Shown here in pieces: positions 7,692 to 37,509 of a stretch of DNA of 64,000 bases. Every line of letters starts with the position of its first letter. The stretch's first letter is position 1. The translations under genes and the position numbers were made by a program. This stretch comes from Dehalococcoidia bacterium (GTDB lineage: Bacteria; Chloroflexota; Dehalococcoidia; Lucifugimonadales; JAGWBF01), in the NCBI GenBank assembly GCA_034423015.1, contig DAOUJG010000039.1, positions 75,633-139,632 on the forward strand, written 5' to 3'. The notes below the pieces were generated by a model, which made no database searches, was not told the origin of the DNA, and worked only from the letters and a program-made list of their open reading frames with translations.

Positions 7692-7702
7692 CTCCCGGGG
7701 AC

Positions 7703-8745: not shown

Positions 8746-8774
8746 TTGACACCACCCGGAGGCGTGGCTAACAT
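8746..8774 (+). promoter_or_regulatory. sigma-70-type promoter candidate for the nitroreductase gene (TTGACA-17-TAACAT)
   Basis: -35 TTGACA(CC) at 8746-8751, -10 TAACAT at 8769-8774. The -35 lies inside the second copy of a 17-bp direct repeat. Confidence 0.45.
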
Positions 8775-8810
8775 GCCTCTTGTCCCCAAGATCGAGACCT
8801 AGGAGCCATC

Positions 8811-9494: not shown

Positions 9495-9530
9495 CCCGGT
9501 ACGGGGCGTCGGCCACCGACTAGGGCCCAA

Positions 9531-10823: not shown

Positions 10824-11103
10824 TGCTTACACCCCCTTGAGTCTTTTGACACGGGCCCAAGAGCGCCGGAAGCGACAGCCCTCTCGCGAAGACCGGACCG
10901 TTCGGACGCTGCCCTTGCAAACAATGATAACACGTACGCGTCGGGGCTTTCCCGAACGGGCACAGTCATACCCACATCAATTCGGTAGTCTTCGAAGGGG
11001 CCGCGGTGTACAATTGCATGCGAGTCACACGGTCTACGCGACCCTTGGAGATTCCAGGCCAGCGGCGACACCAACGCCACCTGAGGCCAGTAAGGAGCAG
11101 GGA

Positions 11104-11589: not shown

Positions 11590-11645
11590 CGACGCGCGCA
11601 GCCCGGGTCCGGCCTCCACGAGACCCGGAGAAGCGAACGCCCCAA

Positions 11646-13064: not shown

Positions 13065-13135
13065 ACCCCCTTCCCGATTACGGTTCTGACAGATACAGGG
13101 TGTCCACGGAGCCCCACGGTCCGCTCCGCGGCCGG

Positions 13136-14314: not shown

Positions 14315-14396
14315 GACGCCCTCCCTCGGAAGACCCGGGATGCGGTCGGACGGCGGCCGAAGACGGCCCCGAACGGAGCAATTGTAGCACGGGGGC

Positions 14397-22657: not shown

Positions 22658-22717
22658 CGCGGGTATTCACAGCGCGGGTATTCACAGCGCGGGTATTCAC
22701 AGCGCGGGTATTTACAG
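22658..22717. repeat. 4 x 15-bp perfect-phase tandem repeat (cgcgggtattcacag; last copy c->t)
   Basis: Copies start at 22658, 22673, 22688 and 22703. The array ends 3 nt before the ggagg RBS of the amidohydrolase gene starting at 22731. Confidence 0.95.
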
Positions 22718-22730
22718 GAGGTAATGAAAG

Positions 22731-24281
22731 ATGAGCTCTAGTCTGATACGGGGCAAGTACGTCATCTGCAAGATAACGGGACCAGACTCGGCCCAGGTGG
22801 TGTCCGACGGGGCAGTGTACCAGCGGGACGGGGCCATAGTGGAGGTCGGCCCGTACGAGGACCTGCGGCAGCGGCACCCGGACGCGGAGGTCATCGGCTC
22901 CTCCAGCTACGTGGTGATGCCCGGGCTGGTCAACGACCACTTCCACGTCGGATTCAGCCCCTTCCAGATGGGCTCGCCGGACCTGCCCCTGGAGCTATGG
23001 CAGGCGTCGAGGATGGGCGCCCGGCGGATAGACCCGTACCTCGACCAGATCTACGGGGCCATCCAGATGATCGAGTCGGGCACCACAACGGTGCAGGCCA
23101 TCCACGGAGGCGCGGCGTGGTGGAGGCCCATGGACCTGGAGGTGGCCGACAAGGCGGTCGGGGCCTTCCAGGACTCGGGCATGCGGGTGTCCTACGCTCC
23201 CTCGGTGGCCGACCAGGACGCCACCGTGTCCGGGGCCAGGGGAGGGGAGGCGGAGCTGACGGCCCAGATGCCGCCCGAGCTGGCGGAGCGGTACCTGGCC
23301 CCCCTGAGGGCCCGCTACCGCCCGGTGGAGGACCTGATGGCCGCCCTGGAGGAGATCTGCCAGAAGTACGGCAACGACCGGTACGAGCGGGTGCGCATCA
23401 CCATGGCCCCCAGCAACGTCCACAGGTGCTCCGACGCGCTGCTGGACAGCTTCCGGCGCATGGCCACCAAGTACAGCACCGGCATCCACATCCACCTCCT
23501 GGAGACCATCTACCAGAAGGAGTACGGAGCACGCCTGTGGAACAAGAGCCCTCTCCAGCACCTGTACGACCTGGGGTTCCTGGGCCACGACGTGGTGTGC
23601 GGCCACAGCGTGTGGGTGAGCGAGGATGACATCGACATCATGGCGTCCACGGGCACCAACGTATGCCACAACGCCAGCTCCAACCTGCGCCTGCAGAGCG
23701 GCATCGCTCCCGTGGGCCCCCTGCTCCGGAAGAACATCAGGATCGCCATCGGCAGCGACGAGGCGGGCCTCAACGACGACAAGGACCTGTTCCAGGAGAT
23801 GCGCCTGGTGCTGAAGATACACCGGGTGCCGGGAGTAGAGAACGTGCCGCCCACGTCGTACCAGGTGTTCCGGATGGGCACTGAGCACGGGGCCTACGCA
23901 AGCTGGTTCGGGGACAAGGTCGGCACCCTGGAGCCCGGCAAGCGGGCGGACGTCGTGCTGCTGAACCTGCGGAACATCGAGGAGCCTTACCTGGACCCCG
24001 ACGTGTCCATCGTGGACGCGGTGGTCCACCGGGGACGCAGCATCGACGTCGACACGGTCATAGTGGACGGCGAGGTCGTGATGCGGGACCGCAAGCTGAC
24101 CAAGATCGACAAGGAGGCGCTGTACGCCGAGTTCAAGAAGGCGCTGGACCGTCCCCTGGAGCCGGGGGAGGTCGACAGCCGGGCCCTGGGCCGGGAGGTG
24201 ATCCCGTACATGCGGCGGTTCTACGAAGGGACCCTGCCCGACAACCCCGTCAGCCACTCGATGTACAACGCCCGCCGGTAG
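22731..24281 (+). CDS. metal-dependent amidohydrolase (chlorohydrolase/aminohydrolase, SsnA/TRZ-ATZ-like), copy 1
   Basis: VMPGLVNDHFHVG (HxH metal site), HLLE, CGHSVW and GSDEAGLNDD motifs; 516 aa. Confidence 0.85.
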   Translation: MSSSLIRGKYVICKITGPDSAQVVSDGAVYQRDGAIVEVGPYEDLRQRHPDAEVIGSSSYVVMPGLVNDHFHVGFSPFQMGSPDLPLELWQASRMGARRIDPYLDQIYGAIQMIESGTTTVQAIHGGAAWWRPMDLEVADKAVGAFQDSGMRVSYAPSVADQDATVSGARGGEAELTAQMPPELAERYLAPLRARYRPVEDLMAALEEICQKYGNDRYERVRITMAPSNVHRCSDALLDSFRRMATKYSTGIHIHLLETIYQKEYGARLWNKSPLQHLYDLGFLGHDVVCGHSVWVSEDDIDIMASTGTNVCHNASSNLRLQSGIAPVGPLLRKNIRIAIGSDEAGLNDDKDLFQEMRLVLKIHRVPGVENVPPTSYQVFRMGTEHGAYASWFGDKVGTLEPGKRADVVLLNLRNIEEPYLDPDVSIVDAVVHRGRSIDVDTVIVDGEVVMRDRKLTKIDKEALYAEFKKALDRPLEPGEVDSRALGREVIPYMRRFYEGTLPDNPVSHSMYNARR

Positions 24282-24300
24282 ACACGGCCGGGCGGGAAGC

Positions 24301-25338
24301 CTAGATGTTCAGGCGGACGTCCTGGTAGCTCGGGTCCTTCTCGTATATCTGGAGCCTGTGGTGCCGCGCCTCGACGATGACGATCTTGTAGTCGTCTCCC
24401 ACGTCCACCGCCACCGGCCTGCGGAGCAGGGTATCGGGGGTCATGTCCACCCTGGCCCTGGCCTTGACCAGGTCCGGGCTGCCCCGCAGGGTTAGCTGGA
24501 GCCACGGGGACACCTCAGTCGCCTCGCCGGTAATGGCCACGAGGAAGTCGCCGTCCTCGTCGTATACGTTCAGCCTGTCGTTGCCCCAGTCGCAGACGTA
24601 GACGTCCCCGTCCTTGTCCACGGCCACGCCAGCCGGGCGCCGCAGCTCTCCCCGGCCTGTACCCGGGCTCCCGATGGTGGACAGGTACTCGCCCTGGGGA
24701 GAGAACTTCTGGACTCTGTCGTTGCCCCAGTCCCCCACGTAGAACGCACCGTGCCGGTCCGTGGTTATGCCCCAGGGCCGGTCGAACCGGCCCTCCTCCG
24801 AGCCCGGTCCGCCCCAGGTGGAGACGTACTCGCCCTCCCTCGTAAACACCTGCACACGGTGGTTCAGGCTGTCGACTATGTGGAGGTTCTCGTCGGCGTC
24901 TATCGTCACGCCCGCCGGCGCGTCGAGCTCGCCCTCGCCGGTCCCGTGCCTGCCCCACCTGCCCAGGAAGGCGCCGTCCGTGGCGAACCTGTGCACCTGG
25001 TGGGTGGCCTGGTCGGTGACGAAGAGGGTCTCGTCGCCGTCCATGGCCAGGCCTCCCGGCCAGAGGAACTGGCCGTCCTGCAGCTTCTCCACCGTAAGCA
25101 CGTTGAAGCCCGTTCCGGGGCCAGGTACACCGATGTCCTGGACCCACTCGTGGTCCAGGGTGCATTTGGTGATCCGTGGAGAGTTGTTGCGCTCGTCGCT
25201 GGCGTTGACGACATAGAGGACGTCTCCCGACCGGACCAGGTCGGCCGGGTGCTGGAACGAGGTCATCGAGTTCCCGAAGCGGCCCATGGAGTAGAGGTAC
25301 GTGAAGGCCCGGTTGCCGGCAACGCGAGTAGTGGGCAC
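24301..25338 (-). CDS. NHL-repeat six-bladed beta-propeller protein, copy 1
   Basis: Repeated blades (...PAGVTIDADENLHIVDSLNHRVQVF, PWGITTDRHGAFYVGDWGNDRVQKF, PAGVAVDKDGDVYVCDWGNDRLNVY). GTG start behind gggagg. No signal peptide. Confidence 0.85.
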   Translation of the reverse strand: MPTTRVAGNRAFTYLYSMGRFGNSMTSFQHPADLVRSGDVLYVVNASDERNNSPRITKCTLDHEWVQDIGVPGPGTGFNVLTVEKLQDGQFLWPGGLAMDGDETLFVTDQATHQVHRFATDGAFLGRWGRHGTGEGELDAPAGVTIDADENLHIVDSLNHRVQVFTREGEYVSTWGGPGSEEGRFDRPWGITTDRHGAFYVGDWGNDRVQKFSPQGEYLSTIGSPGTGRGELRRPAGVAVDKDGDVYVCDWGNDRLNVYDEDGDFLVAITGEATEVSPWLQLTLRGSPDLVKARARVDMTPDTLLRRPVAVDVGDDYKIVIVEARHHRLQIYEKDPSYQDVRLNI

Positions 25339-25353
25339 CTCAACGACCTCCCG

Positions 25354-26724
25354 CTAGCAGAACTGGTACTCCTTGGTTGCCCCGATGAGCTGCAGCACCT
25401 TGGTCACCCGGTCCTCGAAGGCTTCCGGGGCGTCCTCGGCGTGTCCCACGACCTCATCGTACGTCTCCTCGCCCAGGCGCACCGAGCCCAGTAGCTCCAG
25501 GCAGCCGTCGACCAACTCGCGGGAGGAGCGGCCCTCGCGCTCTCCGAGCCTGGCGATGATGTCCCTGACGCCCGGCAGGCTGGGATTGCTGAGGCGGTCC
25601 GCGCAGAAGTTGATCCGCCGGACCAGGGAGCCGCCGTCGATCCACTCCTTGCCCGTGTGCCAGCCCTCGACGCTGGGAGGATTGAGCAGGTCCTGGCCCT
25701 GGTACACCGATTCGAAGGCAAGCTCCATTACGCCGTGTCTGAGCTGGCCGTACTCGCCCACCAGCCGCACGGTGCTGACCACCACCTCGGCCGGGCTCCT
25801 CACCTTGGCGAACCAGACGGCCTCGTCCTTGAAGAAGTCCGAGTTGAAGACGAAACGCAGGGTCTCGGCGATGTCGTAGTCCGAGGAGGCCAGGGCGCCG
25901 GCTATCGCCTCCACCGCCTGGGGGTCCCGCGGGGGGATGTCGTTCCAGCTTGGGACCTGGACCTCGTCGGCGACGAAGAAGTTGTAGAGATGGCGGGCGA
26001 TGAACCGCGACGTGGCCGGGTGCCTCACTATTATGTCGATGACGTCCTCGCCGTTGAACCGGCCGCGCTGGCCGAGGAACACCTTCTCATCGAAGTCGTG
26101 GTCCTCGGGCCTGTACTCGAAGCTCCACAGGTTGGCGCCGGGCACCTTGGGCGAGATGGTCCAGCCCGTGAAGGCACGGGCCGCCTCGAACACGTCCTGC
26201 TCGGTGTAGTTGCCCTGGCCCATGGAGAAGAGCTCCAGCAGCTCCCGGCCCCAGTTCTCGTTGGGCGAGCCCTTGTGGTTCTCGTTATTGTCCAGCCAGA
26301 AGATCATGGCCGGGTCCATGGCCAGACACACCAACAGCTCCCGGTAGCTGCCCATGCCGTAGCGCCGGAACATGCCGATCTGGTGGACCATCTGGGTGAT
26401 GTTGTCCACCTTGGCGTCCCCCGTGGCGAAGACCATGTGCCAGAACAGGGCCATCTTCTCTTCCAGGGGGCGCGGCGTGGTCAGGAGGTGGTACATGAAG
26501 TTGGACGCACCCAGGTAGGGAGAGGTGGGGTACTCGTGCCCAGGGTAGTACCGGTTCATGGCCAGCTCGTCGAATTCGGGAACGCCGTTGGCCCCCGGAT
26601 ATACCAGCTCGTCGACGGTGGCCTCGTAGCCCCGGGCGGCCCGGGCCTCCAGCTCGCCGTAGGACGCTCCGAACCCGGCGCGGCGCATCAGATGGGCCAT
26701 CAAGGCGATACGCTTGTCTGCCAT
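25354..26724 (-). CDS. DUF1800 family protein, copy 1
   Basis: IALMAHLMRRAGFGA, EEKMALFWH, DPAMIFWLDN..N.KGSPNENWGRELLELFSMG and ARAFTGW motifs. Start ATG 26724. Confidence 0.8.
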   Translation of the reverse strand: MADKRIALMAHLMRRAGFGASYGELEARAARGYEATVDELVYPGANGVPEFDELAMNRYYPGHEYPTSPYLGASNFMYHLLTTPRPLEEKMALFWHMVFATGDAKVDNITQMVHQIGMFRRYGMGSYRELLVCLAMDPAMIFWLDNNENHKGSPNENWGRELLELFSMGQGNYTEQDVFEAARAFTGWTISPKVPGANLWSFEYRPEDHDFDEKVFLGQRGRFNGEDVIDIIVRHPATSRFIARHLYNFFVADEVQVPSWNDIPPRDPQAVEAIAGALASSDYDIAETLRFVFNSDFFKDEAVWFAKVRSPAEVVVSTVRLVGEYGQLRHGVMELAFESVYQGQDLLNPPSVEGWHTGKEWIDGGSLVRRINFCADRLSNPSLPGVRDIIARLGEREGRSSRELVDGCLELLGSVRLGEETYDEVVGHAEDAPEAFEDRVTKVLQLIGATKEYQFC

Positions 26725-26869
26725 GTGCACGACCTCTACCGGCGGGCTTCCCAGGCATACACTACCCGGCTGCCGCAGCTACACCCGCCGGACCCTATGG
26801 CCTACACTATATCACCCCGGATTTGGCAAATCAAAGAGATATGCGGAATTCCCCGATAACTTACGAATG

Positions 26870-26898
26870 AAGATGACGGTTTCGTTTGCCTGTAGGGT
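26870..26898. repeat. left end of transposon: 8-bp target-site duplication AAGATGAC (26870-26877) plus IR-L ggtttcgtttgcctgtagggt (26878-26898)
   Basis: IR-L matches the reverse complement of 30229-30249 at 20/21 positions. The same 8-mer abuts the outside of both IRs. Confidence 0.9.
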
Positions 26899-26913
26899 TT
26901 AGGCCATTTTAGA

Positions 26914-26941
26914 CCCCACGGCACGGCGCCGTGCCGTGGGG
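26914..26941. terminator. perfect 28-nt palindrome (14-bp arms) just beyond the last ORF of the transposon operon
   Basis: ccccacggcacggc/gccgtgccgtgggg, 6 nt downstream of the stop at 26947 (minus strand). No clear U-tract. Confidence 0.45.
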
Positions 26942-26946
26942 GTTCT

Positions 26947-27138
26947 TTATCCCGGCTTCCGACGGGGGTTTGCCTTTACGGTTGGTTCCAAGCTATCGGA
27001 CACCTCAGCCATGAGGCGAGCATACTGCCATGCTAAAGCAACGTGTATGCGCGACATGGCCTCATTGCCGCCTTCATAGGCCAATATGCCGGCCAGTGCC
27101 TGTCCAGCAAAATAATCCATTCGTGATATAGGTGTCAT
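26947..27138 (-). CDS. hypothetical small protein (63 aa)
   Basis: MTPISRMDYFAGQALAGILAYEGG...; ATG 27138 behind ggggaga. No family recognised. Confidence 0.4.
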   Translation of the reverse strand: MTPISRMDYFAGQALAGILAYEGGNEAMSRIHVALAWQYARLMAEVSDSLEPTVKANPRRKPG

Positions 27139-27161
27139 CGTATCTCCCCTGATGTCTTCAC

Positions 27162-28265
27162 TCAGTTTCGTCCCGGCAGCCGTGGGCGCAGCTGCACCCA
27201 CTTCGGCGGCAGCTTCCGCTCCCGCTTTCGGCCCGACACCTTCGGCAGCAACGGCTTAGGCATCCGGCGTCTTCGCTTGCGTGTCCGGCCCTCTCCCTGG
27301 CCGGGAGTTGCTGGTTTCGGTTTCGATGATGTGGGCAGCTTCGGCTGCGGTGACTTCGGCCCTTTGGCCCGCCGCGTCTCCGTCGCAGCGACGACTTTTG
27401 GAGACGCGGCGTCGGCTTTTACCACGTCCGCCCACTCCCGGAATGGCGGCGTCACGTGCGCCACTTCCCCGGGCGTCTTGTTCCCAAGGCTGTGATGCTT
27501 CCTGAACAGGTTGTAGTTGAGCGTCCAGCCGTCCAGGTAGCGTTGGCCGCTCTCGATGCTATCAAGGCCTCGGAGGGTCTTGGTGCGGTCCCTGAATGTC
27601 CCTTGCAGACGCTCCGACAGGTTGTTGTTGACTTCGGCCCTCATGCCTTGGGACTGGACGTGCTCCGCCTCAGGGAGGATGTCCTTGATGGGCTTGATGT
27701 AGGCCCGCCACTTGTCGGTGGTGATTTTCTTCGGCGGCCCGTCCGCGGCAGCCGCGGCCTTCCGGATCGCGGCCCTGGCCGCGTGGCCGTCCCGCCTGTA
27801 GGACAGGTGCGAGGCGAGGATGTAACGGGTGTCCTCGTCCATGACGTTCCAGTTGTAGGCCTTCTTCCCCCCGACGTCCACGACCATCTCGTCGGCCACC
27901 CAATGCCCGCCGCCGGTCTTGGCCTTCTGGTCTTTCATCCCCTTGACGGCCTCGTCGGTGTAGGTCTTGACCCACTCGAACACCGTCGCCTTGGAGGGCT
28001 CCGGGATGTCGTACTCCTTCTCCAACCCTTCGGCTATCTGCTTGTACGACTTCCCGCTGTAGTAGTCCTGGATGGCGCTCCCCATGAGCTCGGCGTCCAT
28101 GCGCCGCCCCTTGCCCTTGCCGTTGGCCCGGAACTTGGTCTTGCAGGCCTTGCACATGTAGCGTTGCTGTCCGGCCTGCTTCCCGACCTTCACCACCTTG
28201 TCACAGGCGCATTCAGGGCAAGCCAGGGTGACGGTTCGGACGGTCGTTTCTTCGAATTGAGTCAT
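27162..28265 (-). CDS. IS6-family DDE transposase with N-terminal zinc-ribbon and long K/R/P-rich C-terminal tail
   Basis: CPECACDK...CKACKTKF zinc ribbon. DDE segments HWVADEMVVDVGGKKAYNWNVMDEDTRYIL, KITTDKWRAYI and NNNLSERLQGTFRDRTK parallel IS26 (WHVDETYVKV.., INTDKAPAY, NNVIECDHGKLKR). Confidence 0.8.
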   Translation of the reverse strand: MTQFEETTVRTVTLACPECACDKVVKVGKQAGQQRYMCKACKTKFRANGKGKGRRMDAELMGSAIQDYYSGKSYKQIAEGLEKEYDIPEPSKATVFEWVKTYTDEAVKGMKDQKAKTGGGHWVADEMVVDVGGKKAYNWNVMDEDTRYILASHLSYRRDGHAARAAIRKAAAAADGPPKKITTDKWRAYIKPIKDILPEAEHVQSQGMRAEVNNNLSERLQGTFRDRTKTLRGLDSIESGQRYLDGWTLNYNLFRKHHSLGNKTPGEVAHVTPPFREWADVVKADAASPKVVAATETRRAKGPKSPQPKLPTSSKPKPATPGQGEGRTRKRRRRMPKPLLPKVSGRKRERKLPPKWVQLRPRLPGRN

Positions 28266-28465
28266 GGGCTCTCCTGCAAGCGCTCCGCAAGAGGGTTGTC
28301 AGCACGTAGCGGGTACAAGGACTCCATAGTCTCGAGCCGCTTCATGATCTCCACCCACGCTTTGCGCGTATCGGGTGAACAGTTGATCAACGCCTGGAGC
28401 AACGCCTCGACTTGGCGGGTCATATTCACGGGCACGACCTTTGTAGTATTGCGAACTGACGCCAA
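28262..28465 (-). CDS. hypothetical small helical protein, translationally coupled (ATGA) to the transposase
   Basis: GC3 is about 73% in this frame versus about 40% in the overlapping frame across 28300-28460. TTG start is uncertain (internal ATG, MTRQVEALL...). Confidence 0.4.
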   Translation of the reverse strand: MASVRNTTKVVPVNMTRQVEALLQALINCSPDTRKAWVEIMKRLETMESLYPLRADNPLAERLQESP

Positions 28466-28910
28466 CGCCGCCGTCTTTCTTGTCCGACACGCGAAAGCCG
28501 ATATCGCCGACTCGGCGACAAAGCCACAGCATGTCTTCTTCAGTCCGGACGTGTACCTCTACTACATCAACCCCACGCTTCACCAACCTGTCCAGACAAG
28601 CCCGTTTCTGCGCCGTGGGAGGGCTGGTGACAACCACCTCGACAATCCGTACTGGCGTGTCGTCGTCCCCGTACATGATCAAGTCAGGGACGATGCCTCC
28701 CACGGAGTCCCACTCGCCGGGAATCTTCGTACGGGCCACCCCTGCTCGAATATCCACGTCATACGCACCCCCAGGGCTGGTTCGAATCCAGACCCCGGTA
28801 TCTTCGGTGCCGCGTCGCGTTATCTCGTCATACAGCAGGGCCACGGTGCGGGCGTGCAGGTATGACTCCGGAGCCCCCGCAGTGCCGACGTTCCTACGCA
28901 TGTCCACCAT
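28299..28910 (-). CDS. hypothetical protein with PD-(D/E)xK-nuclease-like core. The 3' third is probably not translated in this frame.
   Basis: IVPDLIMYGDDDTPVRIVEVVVTS...VDVVEVHV resembles a CoiA/TnsA-type nuclease core. ATG 28910 behind ggagg. The C-terminal 55 codons have low GC3 and overlap ORF 28262-28465. Confidence 0.35.
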   Translation of the reverse strand: MVDMRRNVGTAGAPESYLHARTVALLYDEITRRGTEDTGVWIRTSPGGAYDVDIRAGVARTKIPGEWDSVGGIVPDLIMYGDDDTPVRIVEVVVTSPPTAQKRACLDRLVKRGVDVVEVHVRTEEDMLWLCRRVGDIGFRVSDKKDGGVGVSSQYYKGRAREYDPPSRGVAPGVDQLFTRYAQSVGGDHEAARDYGVLVPATC

Positions 28911-28954
28911 CGTTGTACCTCCATTCTCATTCTGCGCCCGGTTTCGTTTGCGCA

Positions 28955-29329
28955 CTACGGGTTCACCCCCACCAAATGTTCGGACGCTCGCCGGATTGCA
29001 ACGCCGATCGGCGTCAAGACAGAGTCGCCCGGCACGCTCCGCCAGTACGTCACGATGTCCCCGGTGTCAGTAACGATTGTCGCGTCGCTCACTCCAGCGC
29101 CCAAGGTGAGCGTGTCACTGGCGGAGTCATAGCCCAGCGTGCCCAACGGGAGGTAGGCCGACGCGCCCATCACGTCCACACTCACCACGTGTGTGCCTGC
29201 GTCGTCGTCAAGACCGACCAGCACTCCAAGGTCATCCTCTAGGTGCGCGCACGTTACCTCGCGGTCGGCCTCGTGGGTCATAACCCGCAACACGTCGGCG
29301 TCCTGGTCGTACACTATTGTCAGCCCCAC
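28955..29329 (-). CDS. tandem DUF2283-domain protein (antitoxin-like)
   Basis: Two YD..aD.L motif domains (LTIVYDQDADVLRV...VSVDVMGAS; LGYDSASDTLTL...IGVAIRRAS). GTG 29329 behind ggagg, overlapping the upstream stop (GTGGGGCTGA). Confidence 0.6.
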   Translation of the reverse strand: MGLTIVYDQDADVLRVMTHEADREVTCAHLEDDLGVLVGLDDDAGTHVVSVDVMGASAYLPLGTLGYDSASDTLTLGAGVSDATIVTDTGDIVTYWRSVPGDSVLTPIGVAIRRASEHLVGVNP

Positions 29330-29730
29330 TCTCGTACCTCCACGTCCTCGAAGCGTCGCTCGAAGTAGGCCCGATTCCCCTCGCGCCATGCCACAGTAGC
29401 GTTCCTGTCCTGAAAGGCGTTCACGATGGTCGAATCGTCCATCGACACCACAACCCGCACCACCTTCCCCAGCTCCGCCACATAAGCCATGTAATTCCGG
29501 CTCGGTCGCCCTGTCCTGTCAACGTAGACTCCACTCACAAACCAATCGTCCAGCACCTTCGCCACGACCTTTCTGGACATGCCGCTGTGTGGACTGTCGA
29601 ACATGTGGCGAGAGATGGCGCGGGTCCGCCCTCCGGCATCCAGTCTACGCCCGTAGCCACAGCTTGGACAGCCGGGCCTAGTGCTGGGCGTCTGCTTGCG
29701 TCGACAGCCTGAACCGCATCTGTGGCTCAC
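29320..29730 (-). CDS. DUF4258-like protein (toxin-like partner of DUF2283)
   Basis: ...AISRHMFDS...GMSRKVVAKVL...GKVVRVVVSMDDSTIVNAFQ fits the DUF4258 pattern. The start is uncertain (a GTGA overlap with the upstream ORF at 29727-29730). Confidence 0.45.
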   Translation of the reverse strand: MSHRCGSGCRRKQTPSTRPGCPSCGYGRRLDAGGRTRAISRHMFDSPHSGMSRKVVAKVLDDWFVSGVYVDRTGRPSRNYMAYVAELGKVVRVVVSMDDSTIVNAFQDRNATVAWREGNRAYFERRFEDVEVREWG

Positions 29731-30212
29731 GCTCCTTCATCCTCTATACCGTCTTGCGCCCGTTTCCACTCCCATAGACGGCGTTCTATTTCCGGCCACT
29801 GTTTCTCGGCATCCTCGCCGCTTATGGCGATAATCAGATGGTCGCCGTGGGTTGCATGGAAGTCCATGTGGCTCTCGATCTCTGTTGCCCGGTCGTTGAG
29901 CCAAGCTGTCCTCTCTTCTACCTTTCGCATCGCCCTGTACGCCATGTAGCGGAAGACCCCGTAGTTCACAATGGCCAGCACGCATCCTATGGCCAGTAAG
30001 AACCCCGTGTGTTCTAGGGTTGCCGCCGGAATCCTATGTTCAAAGGCAACGCTCACCCCAGCAAATATCACGGCCAGTACACCGAACGGGGCCAAGAAAA
30101 GCCCGCATCCGACAGCGAGAGCAATCCCTGTCCCCATGTGATAGCCTGGCCTGCCCAGGCGCTCCTCTAGCAACTTCGCTGTCCCCGGCACCAGCTCCCA
30201 GTCCATACGCAC
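29727..30212 (-). CDS. hypothetical membrane protein (3 predicted TM helices plus acidic C-terminal domain)
   Basis: 161 aa with hydrophobic stretches GIALAVGCGLFLAPFGVLAVIFAGVSVAF and GFLLAIGCVLAIVNYGVF. First gene inside IR-R. Confidence 0.5.
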   Translation of the reverse strand: MRMDWELVPGTAKLLEERLGRPGYHMGTGIALAVGCGLFLAPFGVLAVIFAGVSVAFEHRIPAATLEHTGFLLAIGCVLAIVNYGVFRYMAYRAMRKVEERTAWLNDRATEIESHMDFHATHGDHLIIAISGEDAEKQWPEIERRLWEWKRAQDGIEDEGA

Positions 30213-30228
30213 ATCATATCACCCCCAT

Positions 30229-30257
30229 ACCCTACAGGTAAACGAAACCAAGATGAC
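30229..30257. repeat. right end of transposon: IR-R accctacaggtaaacgaaacc (30229-30249) plus 8-bp target-site duplication AAGATGAC (30250-30257)
   Basis: See the left-end feature for the matching sequences. Confidence 0.9.
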
Positions 30258-30335
30258 AAGACCGGCAAACCCGGTCAACCAGCCCCATCGCAACGGCCTG
30301 CCTGGAAGGGATTTCGGCCCCCTCGCGCCCGTCGA

Positions 30336-30364
30336 TTGACACCGTACGCCTGAGCAAGTACGCT
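30336..30364 (+). promoter_or_regulatory. promoter candidate for amidohydrolase copies 2/3 (TTGACA-17-TACGCT)
   Basis: -35 TTGACA(CC) at 30336-30341, -10 at 30359-30364, outside the transposon. Confidence 0.4.
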
Positions 30365-30407
30365 ACCGGCAGACCCCCTTCCGTAGCCGTCGCAAGGAGG
30401 TGTGGCC

Positions 30408-31961
30408 GTGGCTTCGTCATTGATAAGGGGCAAGTACGTCGTGTCCAAGATTACCGGGCCCGACTCGGCCGAGGTGGTCTCGGACGGGGCCGTGTTTCAG
30501 AGGGACGGCGCCATCGTCGAGGTGGGCCCGTACGCGGACCTGAAGGAGCGGCACCCGGACGTGGAGGTGATAGGCTCCCCCAGCTACGTGGTGATGCCGG
30601 GGATGGTCAACGACCACTTCCACGTGGGGCTGAGCCCGTGCCAGATGGGGGCGTTGGACAATACCCAGGAGCTGAGGGCCCTGATAAGGATGGGCGCCAG
30701 GCGTATAGACCCATACCTGGACCAGCTGTACGGGGCCATCCAGATGATCGAGACGGGCACCACAACGGTGTGCGCCATACACGGCGGAATCACCAGGACG
30801 AACCCCGCCGAGATCCCGGACGTGGCGGACAAGGCCCTGAAGGCCTATCAGGAAGCCGGGATGCGCGTCTCCTACGCCCCCACCATCGCCGACCAGAACG
30901 CCCACATCGTGGGGCCCCGGGGGAACGAACGAGATTTCGCCGCGTTCATGCCCGGGGACCTGGGAGAGCGGTTCGCCAGCCACGTGGGGCGGGCTTACGG
31001 CCGGGTGGAGGAGTGGATGGAGGCCCTGGAAGAGGTCTTCAGGAGGTACGGCAACGACCAGTACGAGCGGATTCGAGTCACCCTGGCGCCCAGCAACGTG
31101 CACCGGTGCTCGGACGACTTGCTCGTCGCCTTCAAGGAGCTGGCCACCAAGTACCGGACGGGCATCCACATCCACCTCCAGGAGAGCCCTTACCAGAAGT
31201 TCTACGGCATGAACGCCTACGGGAAGACCCCCTTCCAGCACCTGGGCGACCTGGGCTTTCTGGGGCCCGAGGTGGTGTGCGGCCACAGCGTCTGGATCAC
31301 CGACGAGGACATCGAGCTCATGGCGGCCACGGGCACCAACGTGTGCCACAACGCCAGCTCCAACCTGCGCATCCACAACGGCATCGCCCCGGTGGGCAAG
31401 CTGCTGCAGAAGGGCATAAGGGTCGCCCTGGGCAGCGACGAGGCGACTATCAACGACGACAAGGACATGTACCAGGAGATGCGCCTGGCCCTGCGCCTGC
31501 ACTACCTGCCGGGCATAGACAACGTCATCCCAACGCCCTACGACCTCTTCCGGATGGGCACCGAGCACGGGGCCTACGCCGCCTGGTTCGGGGACCGGGT
31601 GGGGACGCTGGAGCCCGGCAAGCGGGCCGACATCGTCCTGATGGACCTGCGGAACATCGAGTACCCGTTCATCGACCCGGAGATAACCCTAATCGACGCC
31701 CTGGTATACCGGGGCAGGAGCCAGGACGTGGATACGGTGATTATCGACGGCGACGTGGTGATGCGCGACGGAAAGCTGACCCACGTGGACAAGGAGGCGG
31801 TGCTCCAGGAGATCAGCTCGGCCCTGAACAGGCCCCTGTCCGCCAGGGAGATGGAGGCCCGCGACCTGGTGAGGCAGGTCGAGCCGTACATGCGGCGGTT
31901 CCTCGAGGGCACCTTCCCCCAGGACCTGACGCCCCACTCCGTGTACAACTCGCGGTACTAG
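30408..31961 (+). CDS. metal-dependent amidohydrolase, copy 2
   Basis: Paralog of 22731-24281 (ASSLIRGKYVVSKITGPDSAEVVSDGAVFQRDGAIVEVGPY..., MPGMVNDHFHVG). GTG 30408 chosen (7 nt after aaggagg) over 30402. Confidence 0.85.
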   Translation: MASSLIRGKYVVSKITGPDSAEVVSDGAVFQRDGAIVEVGPYADLKERHPDVEVIGSPSYVVMPGMVNDHFHVGLSPCQMGALDNTQELRALIRMGARRIDPYLDQLYGAIQMIETGTTTVCAIHGGITRTNPAEIPDVADKALKAYQEAGMRVSYAPTIADQNAHIVGPRGNERDFAAFMPGDLGERFASHVGRAYGRVEEWMEALEEVFRRYGNDQYERIRVTLAPSNVHRCSDDLLVAFKELATKYRTGIHIHLQESPYQKFYGMNAYGKTPFQHLGDLGFLGPEVVCGHSVWITDEDIELMAATGTNVCHNASSNLRIHNGIAPVGKLLQKGIRVALGSDEATINDDKDMYQEMRLALRLHYLPGIDNVIPTPYDLFRMGTEHGAYAAWFGDRVGTLEPGKRADIVLMDLRNIEYPFIDPEITLIDALVYRGRSQDVDTVIIDGDVVMRDGKLTHVDKEAVLQEISSALNRPLSAREMEARDLVRQVEPYMRRFLEGTFPQDLTPHSVYNSRY

Positions 31962-31994
31962 CCCCAGCGGCCAGACAGGTACAGGAGGAGACCC

Positions 31995-33545
31995 ATGGCT
32001 TCATCGTTGGTACGGGGAAAGTACGTCATCTGCAAGGTAACGGGCCCCGACTCCGCCGAGGTGGTGGCCGACGGGGCGCTGTTCCAGAGGGACGGCGAGA
32101 TCGTCGAGGTGGGGGACTACGAGCAGCTCAGGGCCAACCATCCCGACGTGGAGGTCATCGGCTCCCCGCGATACGTGGTGATGCCCGGGTTGGTCAACGA
32201 CCACTTCCACGTGGGACTGACCCCCTTCCAGCTTGGCGCCCCCGACCTGCCCCTGGACCTGTGGGGCCTGGTGACCATGGGAAGAGCTTACGCCCGGCGT
32301 CTGGACCCCTACCTGGACCAGATGTACGGCGCGGTCCAGATGATCGAATCGGGCACCACCACGGTACAGGCCATACACGGGTCGAACAGGGGGGCCCGGC
32401 CCATGAACCCTGAAGCGGCGGGCAGGGCCATCACGGCGTTCCAGGAGTCGGGCATGCGGGTGTCGTACTGTCCCGCCGTGGCCGACCAGAACTCCCTGGT
32501 CTCCCTGGGCACCGAGGCCGGCTTCGCCGCCACCCTGCCCCCGGAGCTGGCGGAGCGGTTCACGTCGTTCATGGCGGCCAGCTACCGGCCCGTCGAGGAG
32601 ACGATAGAGTCCTTCGAGGAGATAAGCGAACGGTGGGGCAACCGCTACGAGCGGGTCCGCCTCACCCTCGCCCCCAGCAACGTCCACCGGTGCTCCGACG
32701 AGCTGCTGGTGGCCTTCAGGGAGCTGGCCAACAAGCACAAGACCGGGATACACATCCACCTTCAGGAGAGCATATACCAGAAGCTGGAGGGCCTGAGAGC
32801 CTGGAACAAGACCCCGCTGCAGCACCTGAACGACCTGGGATTCCTGGGCCCCGACGTGGTCTGCGGCCACAGCGTCTGGGTCACCGACGAGGACATCGAG
32901 GTGATGGCGGCGACGGGCACCAACGTGTGCCACAACGCCAGCTCCAACCTCCGGATCTCCAGCGGCATCGCGCCCATAGGGAAGCTGCTCCGAAAGGGCA
33001 TCCGGGTGGCCATAGGCAGCGACGAGGCCGGCATCAACGACGACAAGGACCTGCTCCAGGAGATGCGCCTGGTGCAGAAGATCCACAAGGCCCCCGGGGT
33101 GGAGACGGTTCCCCCCACCTCCTACCAGGTGTTCCAGATGGCCACGGAGAACGGCGCCTACGCGAGCTGGTTCGGCGACAGGGTGGGCACCCTGGAGCCC
33201 GGCAAGCGGGCCGACGTCGTACTCCTGAGCCTGGACAGCATCGAGGAGCCGTACCTGGACCCCGAGGTGTCCATTGTGGACGCGGTGGTCCACAGGGGCA
33301 CCAAGTGGGACGTGCACACGGTGCTGGTGGACGGGGAGGTGGTCATGCGGGACCGCAAGCTGACCAAGATCGACAAGGAGGGCCTCTACCGGGAGCTGAA
33401 AGAGGTGCTCAACAGGCCCAAGACCGACTACCAGATCGAGATGCGGGACATGACCGACCAGCTCATGCCCTACCTGAGGCGGTTCTACGAGGGCACCATA
33501 CCCGAGGGCATGACGCCCCACACCATCTACAACGCGAGCCAGTAA
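31995..33545 (+). CDS. metal-dependent amidohydrolase, copy 3
   Basis: MASSLVRGKYVICKVTGPDSAEVVADGALFQRDGEIVEVGDY..., MPGLVNDHFHVG. RBS aggagga. Confidence 0.85.
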   Translation: MASSLVRGKYVICKVTGPDSAEVVADGALFQRDGEIVEVGDYEQLRANHPDVEVIGSPRYVVMPGLVNDHFHVGLTPFQLGAPDLPLDLWGLVTMGRAYARRLDPYLDQMYGAVQMIESGTTTVQAIHGSNRGARPMNPEAAGRAITAFQESGMRVSYCPAVADQNSLVSLGTEAGFAATLPPELAERFTSFMAASYRPVEETIESFEEISERWGNRYERVRLTLAPSNVHRCSDELLVAFRELANKHKTGIHIHLQESIYQKLEGLRAWNKTPLQHLNDLGFLGPDVVCGHSVWVTDEDIEVMAATGTNVCHNASSNLRISSGIAPIGKLLRKGIRVAIGSDEAGINDDKDLLQEMRLVQKIHKAPGVETVPPTSYQVFQMATENGAYASWFGDRVGTLEPGKRADVVLLSLDSIEEPYLDPEVSIVDAVVHRGTKWDVHTVLVDGEVVMRDRKLTKIDKEGLYRELKEVLNRPKTDYQIEMRDMTDQLMPYLRRFYEGTIPEGMTPHTIYNASQ

Positions 33546-33584
33546 CGGCCAACGGCAGGCGCGGCGCCAATCTTGATAGTAAGC

Positions 33585-33613
33585 TTGACGCTCCTACGAA
33601 CTGGCTGTATCCT
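33585..33613 (+). promoter_or_regulatory. promoter candidate for SBP 2 (TTGACG-17-TATCCT)
   Basis: -35 at 33585-33590, -10 at 33608-33613, 40 nt upstream of ATG 33654. Confidence 0.4.
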
Positions 33614-33653
33614 AGTACGCGCTTGACTCGGATTTGATTCTGTGGAGGAAGCA

Positions 33654-35870
33654 ATGTCGCGTGTTTTGCGGGCCGGTTGGAAGTGGCTACTATTGGGAGC
33701 CTTGCTGGCTGTATTTGTCGTAGGCGCGGCCTGCGGCGAGGACCCGACTCCGGCGCCAACGCAAGCCCCCGGCATAACGTCGGCGGACGTAGAGTCGGCA
33801 GTCAGGTCCGCCGTCGGTGAGGCTGTTGGAGAAGCCGTCGGTGAGGCTGTTGGAGAAGCCGTAGGCGAAACCGTGTCGGCTGAGGAGATCGCGGGGATGG
33901 TCAACGAGGCCGTCGCCGGGATAGACATCCCCGAGGGCGTGTCCGCCGACGACGTCAGCATGCTGGTGAACGAGGCCATCCAGGGCATCGATATCCCCGA
34001 AAGCGTTTCCGCCGAGGAGATCGACAGGATGGTCAAACAGGCCACCGCCGACGCCGTCGCGGGGGCGGAAGCAGGCGTCACCTCCGAGGAGCTGGCGATG
34101 GCCATTGACCAGGCCGTGGCCGACGCCGTGGCCCAGGCCTCGGAGATCCAGATAGAGGAGATACTGGAACGCATAGCGACCCCCGTGGCCATGGCCGAGG
34201 CAGCCCCGGTGCCCGACTGGGTGGGGCGGGGCAAGTACGGCGGGACGATAAACTTCGCGTCCACCTCGGACCCGGGGTTCATCGACCTGCACTTCTCGGC
34301 AAGCATCAACTCCGGCCTGACGGTGGCCGGCAACCGGTTCAACCAGCTGGTGGAGTTCAACCCGGTCAACGCCAGCGAGGTCATCGGTGACCTGGCAACG
34401 ACCTGGGAGGCGAGCCCGGACGGGCGCGTCTACACCTTCACCATCCACCCCGACGCCAACTGGACCGACGAGGCCCGCACCCCCGTGACGGCTGCCGACG
34501 TGGTGTTCAGCCTGGACCGGGTGGTGGACCCGGACGCGATCAGGCCACGGGCCGGAGCAGCCCTGAAGCCCTTCTACGCGCCGGGCAACTCCAGGGTCAT
34601 CGACGACAAGACGGTGGAGGTCACCATCAAGTTCCCCTCCGCCGCCTTCCTGCCCTGGCTTGCCTTCGACTACGTGAAGGTGTACCCCAAGCACATCGTC
34701 GAGAACCTGACCCAGGACGAGGTCAACTGCTGCTACGAGAACCTGGTGGGCTCGGGCCCCTGGATGTTCAAGAACCTGGAGCGGGGCGTAGTCATAGAGT
34801 GGGAGAAGAACCCCAACTACTTCAAGGAAGGCCGTCCCTTCTTCGACGGCTGGAAGGGCATCCTGTTCAAGGACCGGCTCAGGGCCATCTCCGCCATGCA
34901 GTCGGAGCAGGTGATGGGCTGGACGGCCACCTACCAGAACGCGCCCACCTTCGACGTGTACGAGCAGCTCGAGGAGGACACGGGCGGTAAGCTCAGGGCT
35001 TTCCAGCTCCCGGGAGCCGGCGCGCCCGGAATAATGCTCAACTGGACCAAGCCGCCCTTCGACGACCCCAATGTGCGAAAGGCCGTCATGATGGCCTTGG
35101 ACCGCGTCGAGATAATCAAGACGGTGTTCAAGGGAATCGGGCGGCAGGGGACCTTCCTTCCCGGAGGCTCCTCCGTTGCCGAAGCCGAGGCCAGCTGGCC
35201 CGGATGGAGGTACGTGGACGCCGACGGCAACCTCATCACGACGGACCCGGTGAAGGTCGTGGGCTCCCAGAAGCACCCCGACGACATCGCCGAGGCCCAG
35301 AGGCTGGTACGGGAGGCCGGATACGAGAACAACTTCTCGGGGGACGTCCTCTCCTTCGACGACGCCTCCAGCGTGAACATGTCCGACCTGATCGCAAGGC
35401 AGATGAACGAGACCTTCGGCTGGGACTTGAAGGTGACGGTGCTGGACCTGGCCGCCGCGTCCATCGAGCGCAACGAGGGCCGGTTCGACCTCCACCAGGA
35501 GAGCCACGGCGTCGAGCTGAACGACCCCAACGCGTTGCTGGGCCAGATGTACCTGGCCGGCGGCGGCAGGAACTCCCTGAACTGGCACGACCCCAGGATA
35601 GACGAGCTGGCCGAGCGGCAGTCCAGGGCCGGGTCTACGGAAGAGCGCAAGGCGCTGGTGCTGGAGATCGAAGCGATCCTCAGGGACGAGGGCGTCGCCC
35701 AGTGGGTGCCCCTGGGCTGGATACCCGTCAACGGGGCCCTGAACGTCCAGATCAGGAACTTCCACCTGCCCAAGGCCAGTGACGTAGGGGCGGCCTGGAA
35801 CGTGATCCACAAGAAGGAGCACCTCTGGTACGACCCCGACGCTCAGCCTGACTGGGGCCTGGGACAATAA
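33654..35870 (+). CDS. ABC transporter substrate-binding lipoprotein, family 5 (Dpp/Opp-type), copy 2
   Basis: Signal and lipobox MSRVLRAGWKWLLLGALLAVFVVGAAC, about 150-aa repeat linker, then the SBP_bac_5 core (IGDLATTWEASPDGRVYTFTIHPDANWTD...AADVVFSLDR). Confidence 0.88.
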   Translation: MSRVLRAGWKWLLLGALLAVFVVGAACGEDPTPAPTQAPGITSADVESAVRSAVGEAVGEAVGEAVGEAVGETVSAEEIAGMVNEAVAGIDIPEGVSADDVSMLVNEAIQGIDIPESVSAEEIDRMVKQATADAVAGAEAGVTSEELAMAIDQAVADAVAQASEIQIEEILERIATPVAMAEAAPVPDWVGRGKYGGTINFASTSDPGFIDLHFSASINSGLTVAGNRFNQLVEFNPVNASEVIGDLATTWEASPDGRVYTFTIHPDANWTDEARTPVTAADVVFSLDRVVDPDAIRPRAGAALKPFYAPGNSRVIDDKTVEVTIKFPSAAFLPWLAFDYVKVYPKHIVENLTQDEVNCCYENLVGSGPWMFKNLERGVVIEWEKNPNYFKEGRPFFDGWKGILFKDRLRAISAMQSEQVMGWTATYQNAPTFDVYEQLEEDTGGKLRAFQLPGAGAPGIMLNWTKPPFDDPNVRKAVMMALDRVEIIKTVFKGIGRQGTFLPGGSSVAEAEASWPGWRYVDADGNLITTDPVKVVGSQKHPDDIAEAQRLVREAGYENNFSGDVLSFDDASSVNMSDLIARQMNETFGWDLKVTVLDLAAASIERNEGRFDLHQESHGVELNDPNALLGQMYLAGGGRNSLNWHDPRIDELAERQSRAGSTEERKALVLEIEAILRDEGVAQWVPLGWIPVNGALNVQIRNFHLPKASDVGAAWNVIHKKEHLWYDPDAQPDWGLGQ

Positions 35871-35917
35871 GGCAATCCGATCGGTTGGTGGCCGCTGTGG
35901 CCGAAGAAGACCGGTCT

Positions 35918-35949
35918 CAGGGCTGGGGTCGCCGACCCCAGCCCTGTTT
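35918..35949 (+). terminator. strong stem-loop (13-bp perfect stem, 3-nt loop) followed by TTT, after SBP 2
   Basis: cagggctggggtc-gcc-gaccccagccctg-ttt. May be a terminator, attenuator or mRNA-stabilising element. Confidence 0.6.
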
Positions 35950-36009
35950 GGATGCGCGACGGGACGGCGTACGCCGCCGTTCGGGTATAAGGTGGCACAA
36001 GGAGCCGAG

Positions 36010-37416
36010 ATGACGACGGAAAGCATCGCTCTCATGGCCCATCTGTTCAGGCGGGCCGGGTTCGGGGCCACCATGGAAGAGCTGGAGAGATATGCGGCCA
36101 AGGGATACGAGGAGACGGTCGAGGAGCTGCTCCACCCGGAACGCCAACCCGAGTGGGACGAGGAGCGTCTCTTCAGGGACTTCCCCGAGCTACAGGACCG
36201 CACGGCCATCGAGCCCGGCCAGATATTCTGGACCCACAGGCTGATAGAGACCCGCCGCCCCCTGGAAGAGAAGATGGCCCTGTTCTGGCATGGTGTCCTG
36301 TGCACCGGCGCCGGCAAGGCCGACAACGTCCGCCAGGTCACCATCCAGATCGACATGTTCCGGAGGCTGGGGCTGGGCCGCTTCCCGGATATTCTGGTGG
36401 AGCTGTCCAAGGACCCGGCCATGCTCTACTACCTGGACAACACGGAGAACCACAAGGGGTCCATCAACGAGAACTACGGCCGGGAGCTGCTGGAGCTGTT
36501 CTCCCTGGGTGTCGGCATGGACGGCGAGGCCAACTACACGGAGGATGACGTCCAGGCGTGCTCGCGGGCCTTCACGGGGTGGGGCATCAAGCCTCCCCTG
36601 CCCACGGACCCCTACGGGCCCCACACGTGGACTTTCTACTACGACGCAACCGACCACGACGACGGGGAGAAGACGTTCCTGGGCGAGACCGGGCGCTGGA
36701 ACGGCGAGGACGTGATAGATATCCTGGCCCGGCAGCCCGCGACGCGCCGGTTCATCGCCCGCCACCTGTACAACTTCTTCGTCGCCGACGAGCCGATCGT
36801 GCCCACCTGGAAGGACATCCCGCCCAGGGACCCTCAAGCCATAGAGACACTTGAGGGGGTGTTGGTGGAGAGCGACTACGATATGCGCCAGGTGATGCGG
36901 GTACTGCTGAATTCGGACTTCTTCAAGGACGCCCGCTTCCAGAAGGTCAAGAGCCCGGTGGAGGTGGTGATAGGCACGGTCAAGCAGACGGGGGAGTTCG
37001 CCGCCAACAAGCCCGGGGCCCTGGACCTGGTCATGGAGATGCGGTACATGGGCCAGGACATCCTCAACCCCCCCACGGTGGAGGGGTGGCACACCGGCAG
37101 AGACTGGATCGACAGCGGGACGCTGGTGGAGCGCATCAACTACACCGCGGACCAGATGGGGAACCTGGAGCATCCCGGCATCCGCTCCATCGTGGACCGA
37201 TTGGCCTCCACGGGGCCGCTGCTGTCTCCCGAGAGACTGGTCGACGGCTGCCTCGACGTCCTGGGAGGCTACCGGCTGCCTCAGCAGACCCGGGACAAGC
37301 TGGTCGCACACCTGGCCAAGGGTGGAGACCTGGACACCGCCAGCGAAGAGTTCGGCCAACGGGTGGCGCAAACGCTGCAGCTCATAGTGGCGACCCAGGA
37401 GTACCAGTTCGCTTAG
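36010..37416 (+). CDS. DUF1800 family protein, copy 2
   Basis: IALMAHLFRRAGFGA, EEKMALFWHG, DPAMLYYLDNTENHKGSINENYGRELLELFSLG, SRAFTGW. ATG 36010 behind aaggag. Confidence 0.8.
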   Translation: MTTESIALMAHLFRRAGFGATMEELERYAAKGYEETVEELLHPERQPEWDEERLFRDFPELQDRTAIEPGQIFWTHRLIETRRPLEEKMALFWHGVLCTGAGKADNVRQVTIQIDMFRRLGLGRFPDILVELSKDPAMLYYLDNTENHKGSINENYGRELLELFSLGVGMDGEANYTEDDVQACSRAFTGWGIKPPLPTDPYGPHTWTFYYDATDHDDGEKTFLGETGRWNGEDVIDILARQPATRRFIARHLYNFFVADEPIVPTWKDIPPRDPQAIETLEGVLVESDYDMRQVMRVLLNSDFFKDARFQKVKSPVEVVIGTVKQTGEFAANKPGALDLVMEMRYMGQDILNPPTVEGWHTGRDWIDSGTLVERINYTADQMGNLEHPGIRSIVDRLASTGPLLSPERLVDGCLDVLGGYRLPQQTRDKLVAHLAKGGDLDTASEEFGQRVAQTLQLIVATQEYQFA

Positions 37417-37509
37417 GAAATCTCTGAACGAGGAGTGCTTCCTTCCGGACTAACTCGGCAGGGACTTGCTCAGGCCATTTCCAGGGGGAGACAGATGGAG
37501 GGGAGACAG

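Follow-up and report, generated by a model that had tools for sequence, protein, structure and literature searches.

Does the 3.4-kb segment between a DUF1800 gene and a divergently transcribed amidohydrolase gene in a Dehalococcoidia genome represent a single transposable unit, and do the small genes within it travel as passengers of one transposase? The question arises from a 64,000-nucleotide stretch of contig DAOUJG010000039.1 (assembly GCA_034423015.1, positions 75,633 to 139,632), referred to here as the window, in which a first-pass annotation had recognized an IS6-like transposon carrying additional genes. Our analysis supports an affirmative answer, with a probability of roughly 85%: window positions 26878-30249 (3372 bp) constitute one transposable unit, a passenger-carrying insertion sequence (IS) of the type termed tIS, in the long zinc-finger branch of IS6 and in a clade common in Dehalococcoidia. 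In a tIS, by definition, the passengers lie between the inverted repeats of the IS itself and are moved by its single transposase (PMC7986276).

Element boundaries and the empty site

The longest inverted repeat within 26000-31200 has arms of 26 nt at 26878-26903 (plus strand) and 30224-30249 (minus strand), which are 88% complementary. The first arm, GGTTTCGTTTGCCTGTAGGGTTTAGG, lies at the 3′ end of the transposase gene (tnp) and fits the consensus of related elements (GGTTcCGTTTGCtT.TaGg); the second, supported by the repeat search and the same family consensus, lies at the far (cargo) end, upstream of open reading frame (ORF) 7, and is the left end relative to tnp, the name "left repeat" having earlier been given to the opposite arm. 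The outer 21 nt of the arms agree at 20/21 positions and occur only twice in the 64-kb window; none of 100 dinucleotide-preserving shuffles contained two such matches. Both tips read GGTTTCG, a form of GGTTYCG, with the GG start and the G at position 7 (G7) typical of IS6. The octamer AAGATGAC directly abuts both ends of the element (26870-26877 and 30250-30257); the two copies are identical at 8/8 positions (random expectation, 4^-8), and their length is that of an IS6 target duplication. The repeat and duplication coordinates given by the first-pass annotation were thus correct. The lower guanine-plus-cytosine (GC) content that it had noticed is real but modest (60.9%, compared with 65.3% in both 5-kb flanks and 66.0 +/- 2.1% in other stretches of 3372 bp).

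On one side lies the DUF1800 gene (25354-26730, minus strand), on the other the amidohydrolase gene (30402-31961, plus strand). It had been predicted that excision of the element would restore a divergent spacer of about 300 bp, and a search for an empty site had been proposed. An exact-pattern search of the JGI metagenomes gave no match to the empty site; the true empty site differs from the searched pattern at three bases immediately to the right of the duplication. It was reached instead by a homologue search with the flanking amidohydrolase, which identified a 98%-identical protein on a 361-kb ENA contig; this contig (locus L013) shows synteny with the window and a nucleotide identity of 95-96%. 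L013 positions 2683-6850 align to window positions 22714-26877, and L013 positions 6843-14578 to window positions 30250-38000; the two alignments share exactly eight bases, which are the single AAGATGAC of L013. The uninterrupted DUF1800/amidohydrolase spacer in this natural empty site is 305 bp long and holds that one copy. This eight-base overlap shows that the element was inserted into the spacer after the split from the 95-96% identical sister lineage, duplicating 8 bp of its target. The uncoupling of regulation of the two flanking operons that the first-pass annotation had suggested is speculative: promoter-like sites were found for both flanking genes, and both lie outside the insertion point, each on its own side.

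Two other explanations for the segment were considered and rejected. A remnant of a prophage or integrative island does not fit the exact inverted repeats, the duplication, the clean excision point and the lack of an integrase; a two-IS compound or pseudo-compound transposon does not fit the presence of one transposase gene with no second IS copy in the window.

The surroundings of the insertion show further rearrangement. An insertion polymorphism of an IS4-like element (DDE_Tnp_1_4) distinguishes loci L014 (5367-6692) and L016 (5004-6329) from L015 and L017; the element occurs in either orientation, just upstream of an 82%-identical amidohydrolase gene, so the region is struck repeatedly by IS elements. 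The window itself encodes three amidohydrolase paralogues (22744-24117, 30402-31961 and 31995-33545; 75-79% nucleotide identity between copies), and L013 carries a second DUF1800 gene adjoining a DUF1501 gene, indicating a metabolic gene cluster with internal duplications.

The transposase and its family

The tnp gene (27162-28265, minus strand) encodes a protein of 367 amino acids with a CxxC..CxxC zinc finger, a helix-turn-helix (HTH), a DDE catalytic domain (D125, D184 and E218, with R225) and a basic tail ending in PRLPGRN. The Pfam model DDE_Tnp_IS240 (PF13610) matches at 75.8 bits (cutoff 27; E = 4.8e-21), together with an InsA-type zinc ribbon, and the NCBIfam IS6 model (NF033587) matches at 121.1 bits, just below its curated cutoff, over profile positions 2-202 of 202, the next family (IS1) scoring 64. 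Among the matches listed in a tblastn search of plasmids, nearly all are annotated as IS6 or ISCpe7 transposases, and the best are of the ISCpe7 type. By BLASTP, the protein is 33% identical to the ISCpe7 transposase over 222 amino acids (E = 2e-34), with a further 44% over the zinc finger, and 29% identical over 143 amino acids (E = 4e-8) to Tnp26 of IS26; the Tnp26 sequence used was confirmed by 100%-identical matches from at least 5000 plasmid records. A PDB search revealed no sequence relative.

More than 860 homologues of 350-380 amino acids were found, and in an alignment of 26 homologues C16, C19, C38, C41, D125, D184, E218 and R225 (E+7) are invariant. The catalytic residues align with WHMDE and NTDK of Tnp26 and with NNNLIE..K of ISCpe7, giving the DDE triad with K/R at E+7 that characterizes IS6. 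The C-terminal region (window 27162-27440) comprises a basic low-complexity linker and the motif PPWAxLRPRLPGRN, conserved in the transposases of the clade; IS26 and ISCpe7 lack both. The single IS26-like DDE transposase and the IS6 assignment proposed from the first reading are therefore borne out, the IS6 models being by far the best.

At the level of sequence, then, the element shows each of the IS6 features: a homologous transposase, DDE with R, GG..G7 tips and an 8-bp duplication. In its organization it departs from the compact IS6 plan (0.7-0.9 kb, or 1.2-1.8 kb in the long clades, with a transposase only); its 3372 bp and four or five extra ORFs make it a tIS. It also lies outside the narrow IS6/IS26 definition of Harmer and Hall (2019), which specifies 220-250 amino acids, an H-HTH, no zinc finger and the motif E-DH---K; the present protein has 367 amino acids, the invariant four-Cys zinc finger and the motif SERLQGTFR.

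Harmer and Hall argued that the long zinc-finger elements may deserve a family of their own (PMC6807381), and ISCpe7, ISTet2, ISDsp3 and the present clade could form a separate DDE family split from IS6/IS26, perhaps moving by cut-and-paste or copy-out and not by obligatory cointegrates. The identity of 29% to Tnp26, limited to the HTH and the first half of the catalytic domain, would fit such a split, as would the NCBIfam score, the zinc finger and conserved C-terminal tail absent from IS26, and the replacement of E-DH---K by SERLQGTFR (compare PMC6807381); Harmer and Hall also state that the long elements have yet to be studied by experiment (PMC6807381). The element ends, however, point toward IS6: the clade consensus GGTTcCGTTTGC is near that of the IS26 family (GGTTCTGTTGCAAA; PMC6807381), with GG tips, G7 and GGTTCYGTT, whereas most long elements rarely begin with GG (PMC6807381). 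With the 8-bp duplication as in IS6, and IS6 models as the best matches by far, we consider a separate family possible but doubtful, and retain the placement in a long zinc-finger branch of IS6.

The closest described element, likened here by its published description (host class, family, duplication, passenger, and the size of the smallest members of the clade, 1378-1600 bp), is ISDsp3 from Dehalococcoides sp. BAV1 (NC_009455). It is the sole IS6 member recorded with a passenger gene (PMC7986276), in agreement with the first-pass remark that passengers are unusual in this family. ISDsp3 is 1456 bp long, with a 319-amino-acid transposase, terminal repeats matching at 28/36 positions and an 8-bp duplication, and has been placed on a "solo" branch (PMC6807381). 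It resembles the window element in its IS6 affiliation, bacterial class, 8-bp duplication, long repeats, transposase longer than that of IS26 and possession of a passenger, but has one hypothetical passenger and lacks an intact zinc finger. The zinc finger is intact in the window element, which spans 3372 bp, carries four or five passengers and contains the repeat core a third time, internally.

ISCpe7 and its relatives from Clostridia (clade VII, or clade h) share with the window element the CxxC..CxxC zinc finger, HTH, DDE domain and 8-bp duplication (PMC6807381), and the NNNL(S/I)E motif, followed by a basic residue at E+7, is common to their transposases. Elements of the ISCpe7 type are, however, 1.2-1.35 kb long and carry no passengers, and one long element alone has GG tips (PMC6807381), whereas the window clade has GG tips, the conserved PRLPGRN tail and variable cargo. 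IS26 shares the 8-bp duplication, the HTH and DDE core, a -35-like TTGC inside the repeat, and tips for which the clade pattern GGTT.Y.GTT is near GGTTCTGTTGCAAA; it differs in its length (820 bp), its 234-amino-acid transposase without a zinc finger and its lack of an internal passenger, and its cargo moves in two-copy pseudo-compound transposons and translocatable units, unlike the single-IS cargo seen here. The tIS of other families and mobile insertion cassettes embody the same concept with different transposase families. In the window clade, cargo occupies the space from a putative repeat-borne promoter to tnp, or from tnp to the opposite repeat, and its content changes even where the transposases of two elements are 90% identical. 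The element is thus a new multi-gene tIS of the long-transposase IS6-like (ISDsp3/ISCpe7-related) group, and not a new mechanism.

Relatives and passenger genes

All eight close genome matches to the transposase (eight of eight) are metagenome-assembled genomes (MAGs) of Dehalococcoidia. Scanning of the fetched loci for the terminal repeat yielded 12 further two-ended elements, mostly in Dehalococcoidia genomes and, with the window element, a family set of 13; the relatives measure 1378, 1432, 1600, 1946, 2479, 2786, 3193, 3206, 3210, 3281, 4008 and 4537 bp. The 13 elements have the common repeat consensus GGTTYCGTTTGC, which can be extended to GGTTcCGTTTGCtT.TaGgggaTgg. Perfect 8-bp duplications, all of different sequence and at unrelated sites, flank nine of the 13; one further element has a 7/8 match and three have none. 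Recurrence of the repeat and duplication pattern, which the first-pass annotation had named as a test, was observed in these related elements.

A BLASTP comparison among the first eight elements showed the transposase to be the only ORF that clusters across elements. The cargo of the relatives is varied: a DNA methylase and secreted proteins were seen, as were small membrane proteins and an IS630-like element nested within the cargo. It is found upstream of tnp in some elements, downstream in others and on both sides in still others. One relative (L024) is a plain 1.6-kb IS with a transposase 74% identical to that of the window and a perfect duplication. Such elements form a widespread, usually cargo-bearing clade in Dehalococcoidia, within which passengers are the rule and not the exception.

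Individual relatives have features of their own. The L002 element (3936-7128) carries a gene of about 500 codons whose product, read by eye from the translation, resembles a DNA methyltransferase with a restriction-endonuclease-like C-terminus; the L003 element (5268-9275) has, also by eye, an apparent IS630-type transposase nested in its downstream cargo. Locus L027 contains a 70-bp unit (237-306) resembling a miniature inverted-repeat transposable element, in which the left and right family repeats stand back to back without a duplication; a full element lies about 480 bp away on that contig. The flanks of family members are often rich in defence genes and mobile DNA: McrBC and PDDEXK_4 (L011), GmrSD and a resolvase (L012), a type I restriction-modification system (L025) and three tandem IS4-like transposases (L026).

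Gene calls for the passengers were taken from an identical Logan contig (L001) and from cluster look-ups. All ORFs lie on the minus strand, in keeping with the first-pass description, and no passenger matched Pfam, NCBIfam, PADLOC or PHROGs above threshold. The first gene after the promoter-bearing end, ORF7 (29727-30206; 154-159 amino acids), encodes a small predicted membrane protein with hydrophobic stretches and a sub-threshold holin-like Pfam match (E = 0.0014). It is followed by ORF6 (29320-29730; 136 amino acids, or 94 in the NCBI call), which has no Pfam match at E <= 0.1 and for which a single-sequence AlphaFold2 (AF2) model was discarded because of its predicted local distance difference test (pLDDT) score of 41. 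The product of ORF5 (28955-29329; 124 amino acids) has a DUF2283-like domain below the Pfam cutoff (E = 0.0031; 18.1 bits, cutoff 23). Downstream of tnp, a 63-amino-acid ORF (ORF63; 26947-27138), called in L001, is of uncertain coding status, with no homologue in the family libraries and no occurrence beyond its own contig. Searches of viral contigs with ORF5, ORF6 and the transposase gave no relatives, and thus nothing to indicate a phage origin.

The gene immediately upstream of tnp, ORF4 (28299-28910), reads as 203 amino acids with a PD-(D/E)xK-like (VRR-NUC-like) N-terminal domain and is frameshifted. Its relative P0247 (215 amino acids, 92% identical, locus L018) joins the ORF4 N-terminus and the sequence of a 67-amino-acid ORF (28262-28465) in one frame; one extra base near 28419 shifts the frame in the window element. 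The 67-amino-acid ORF is therefore the original C-terminal frame of ORF4, a HEAT-like helical domain, and its interpretation as a separate gene is ruled out. The first-pass count of seven ORFs with six passengers must accordingly be reduced to at most five passengers. Read in its original frame, ORF4 ends at an ATGA in which its stop codon and the start codon of tnp overlap.

Relatives of ORF4 (92 representatives) are conserved over residues 3-135, with P75-D76 invariant and E91 nearly so; the lysine of (D/E)xK is not conserved. An AF2 model of an intact relative (pLDDT 91.4) gave as best Foldseek matches BstEII (4e-3), VRR_NUC (0.06) and FAN1, none of them significant; an FAN1 VRR-NUC profile matched at E of about 0.3, and one family member matches Pfam VRR_NUC at 7e-4. 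Two relatives that were looked up are stand-alone chromosomal genes in housekeeping neighbourhoods. In local profile searches, the L011 and L026 elements proved to have ORF4-like domains, and ORF7-like first genes were seen in L011, L018 and L026/L027, so that the pair of ORF7-like and ORF4-like genes recurs within a subclade (L011, L026 and L018).

The element is a mosaic. An exact third copy of the repeat core (GGTTTCGTTTGC) lies between ORF5 and ORF4 (28940-28951, plus strand), in the orientation of the 26878 end; the window contains three matches to this core, compared with 0.16 expected, and no internal core was found in the other elements checked. The direct repeat TGCGCCCG abuts this core with a one-base overlap (28933-28940) and recurs 822 bp away (29755-29762), and the 822-bp block between the copies holds the last ORF7 codons, ORF6, ORF5 and the core. 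Locus L018 contains a relic without terminal repeats, in which an ORF7-like gene and an intact ORF4 remain but tnp is cut off after its first 117 nt; it lacks the equivalent of window 28941-29762 and carries the TGCGCCCG octamer once. The L011 element, with a 90%-identical transposase, likewise has adjacent ORF7-like and ORF4-like genes without the ORF6-ORF5 block, and loss of the block from L018 by deletion is less likely for this reason. A single octamer in L018, as against two around the 822-bp block, is the apparent signature of insertion by a transposase of this kind. The relic itself (L018 6477-7761) and the empty-site contig belong to one ENA sample; the relic adjoins a BrnT-like toxin pair and lies downstream of a gene for a 2644-amino-acid S8-peptidase/leucine-rich-repeat protein.

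Sites that may govern expression were found near both ends. A promoter-like site at the cargo end (30213-30242, minus strand) faces inward; its -35 element (TTTACC) falls within the repeat and is separated by 18 nt from a TG-extended -10 element (TATGAT, 30218-30213) that ends 7 nt before the ORF7 ATG. The pattern TGnTAnnnT is present at nt 32-37 from the tip in 8/13 left ends and 5/13 right ends; in three of these five elements (L003, L008 and L019), cargo of 1.8-2.3 kb follows tnp, and that of L003 and L008 has inward-facing ORFs. At the opposite end, a GC-rich hairpin with a 12-bp stem is followed by the T-tract TTCTTTAT (26914-26941, plus strand), resembling a terminator for plus-strand transcripts entering antisense to tnp, and GC-rich palindromic sequence was seen by eye at the same end in several relatives. 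An Rfam scan of 26500-30600 detected no RNA family.

The element might be a stranded fossil that inserted once and is now single-copy and immobile, its ends and duplication being too young to have decayed. Its presence in one copy in the window, the restriction of the exact transposase to two contigs (of which the one read, L001, represents the same site), the ORF4 frameshift as a sign of decay already begun, and the truncated relic of a 92%-identical sibling in a sister sample (L018) are all consistent with this view. Yet the transposase is full length and retains every invariant residue, the repeats still agree at 20/21 positions and the duplication at 8/8, and copy number is unreliable because MAG assemblies collapse repeats; immobility is thus conceivable but seems improbable.

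The passengers might alternatively form a selfish stabilization or defence module (a toxin-antitoxin pair, or an abortive-infection nuclease plus membrane effector) that keeps the element in its host; the first-pass annotation had described the cargo as a toxin-antitoxin-like/nuclease/membrane module. DUF2283 proteins are often antitoxin partners, and the sub-threshold ORF5 match to this family would fit such a role, as would the weak holin-like match of ORF7, the nuclease-like ORF4, the DNA methylase/Mrr-like gene of L002 and the frequent position of sibling elements beside McrBC, GmrSD or type I restriction-modification genes. However, none of the passengers matches PADLOC, PHROGs, Pfam or NCBIfam above threshold, and no toxin domain is detectable in ORF6 (model pLDDT 41), so that a DUF2283/DUF4258-type pair with both partners matching is not what ORF5 and ORF6 present; ORF4 is frameshifted, and passengers of other elements include secreted and unrelated proteins. 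We regard such a module as unlikely. Of the functions first proposed, the nuclease has weak but coherent support and the membrane protein is plausible, whereas the toxin-antitoxin assignment has a single sub-threshold match (E = 0.003) behind it. Very improbable is the proposal that ORF4 is an accessory TnsA-like second-strand nuclease that turns replicative into cut-and-paste movement, since, although its original frame is coupled to tnp by ATGA, its domain recurs in three elements (window, L011 and L026) and the L018 relic, and its weak fold and profile matches are all restriction-endonuclease-like, it is frameshifted in an otherwise intact element, absent from the plain L024 element and most others, located downstream of tnp in L026 and represented elsewhere by stand-alone genes in housekeeping neighbourhoods, with no significant fold match, TnsA not among the matches listed and the canonical (D/E)xK lysine not conserved.

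Mobility and significance

A passenger-carrying IS of the long zinc-finger IS6 branch would be expected to work as follows. The transposase would bind the two outer repeats and make target cuts staggered by 8 bp; by analogy with IS26, movement would probably be replicative, through cointegrates that host recombination then resolves. Transcription may start at the promoter whose -35 element lies in the cargo-end repeat and whose TG-extended -10 element lies 32-37 nt from the tip, producing a nearly leaderless operon (ORF7 > ORF6 > ORF5 > ORF4 > tnp) in which the original ORF4 frame would be translationally coupled to tnp through ATGA, and the strong hairpin at the other end could protect tnp against antisense transcription arriving from outside. 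The passengers are probably true cargo, with ORF7 and ORF4 as the older core and the ORF6-ORF5 block as a later addition; the third repeat core at the end of this block, and the 8-nt direct repeat on either side of it, suggest that cargo may grow by insertion of pieces of sibling elements. A much broader scheme, in which the clade acts as a general gene shuttle, with an inward promoter in each repeat expressing captured DNA at once, cargo built from sibling pieces and an ORF4-like protein as a TnsA-like helper changing the chemistry of transposition, appears highly unlikely.

Several observations count against the interpretation favoured here. Three of the 13 elements lack a duplication, which is expected for IS6-type recombination and also fits decay, and the transposase falls 4 bits short of the cutoff of 125 for NF033587, a near miss. 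Consensus matching is the basis for the promoter and terminator, and analogy that for the cointegrate step. The ORF6-ORF5 block has a recognizable repeat at one end only. One passenger (ORF4) is already frameshifted, and with one copy of the element seen in the assembly its current activity is unproven.

The IS6 family is known chiefly for the movement of resistance genes in two-copy pseudo-compound transposons. This locus and its 12 relatives indicate that, in Dehalococcoidia, single-copy IS6-like elements routinely hold 0.5-3 kb of variable cargo with clean 8-bp duplications. They provide material for ISfinder curation, for cointegrate tests of the long zinc-finger transposases and for study of how tIS passengers are gained and swapped; useful leads include the clade-wide turnover of cargo, the putative repeat-borne promoters, the block terminated by a repeat at one end and the recurrent nuclease-like gene coupled to tnp. 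At the site itself, a 3.4-kb insertion parts two divergent metabolic genes in this lineage, whereas the sister lineage lacks it, and the pair constitutes a natural experiment.

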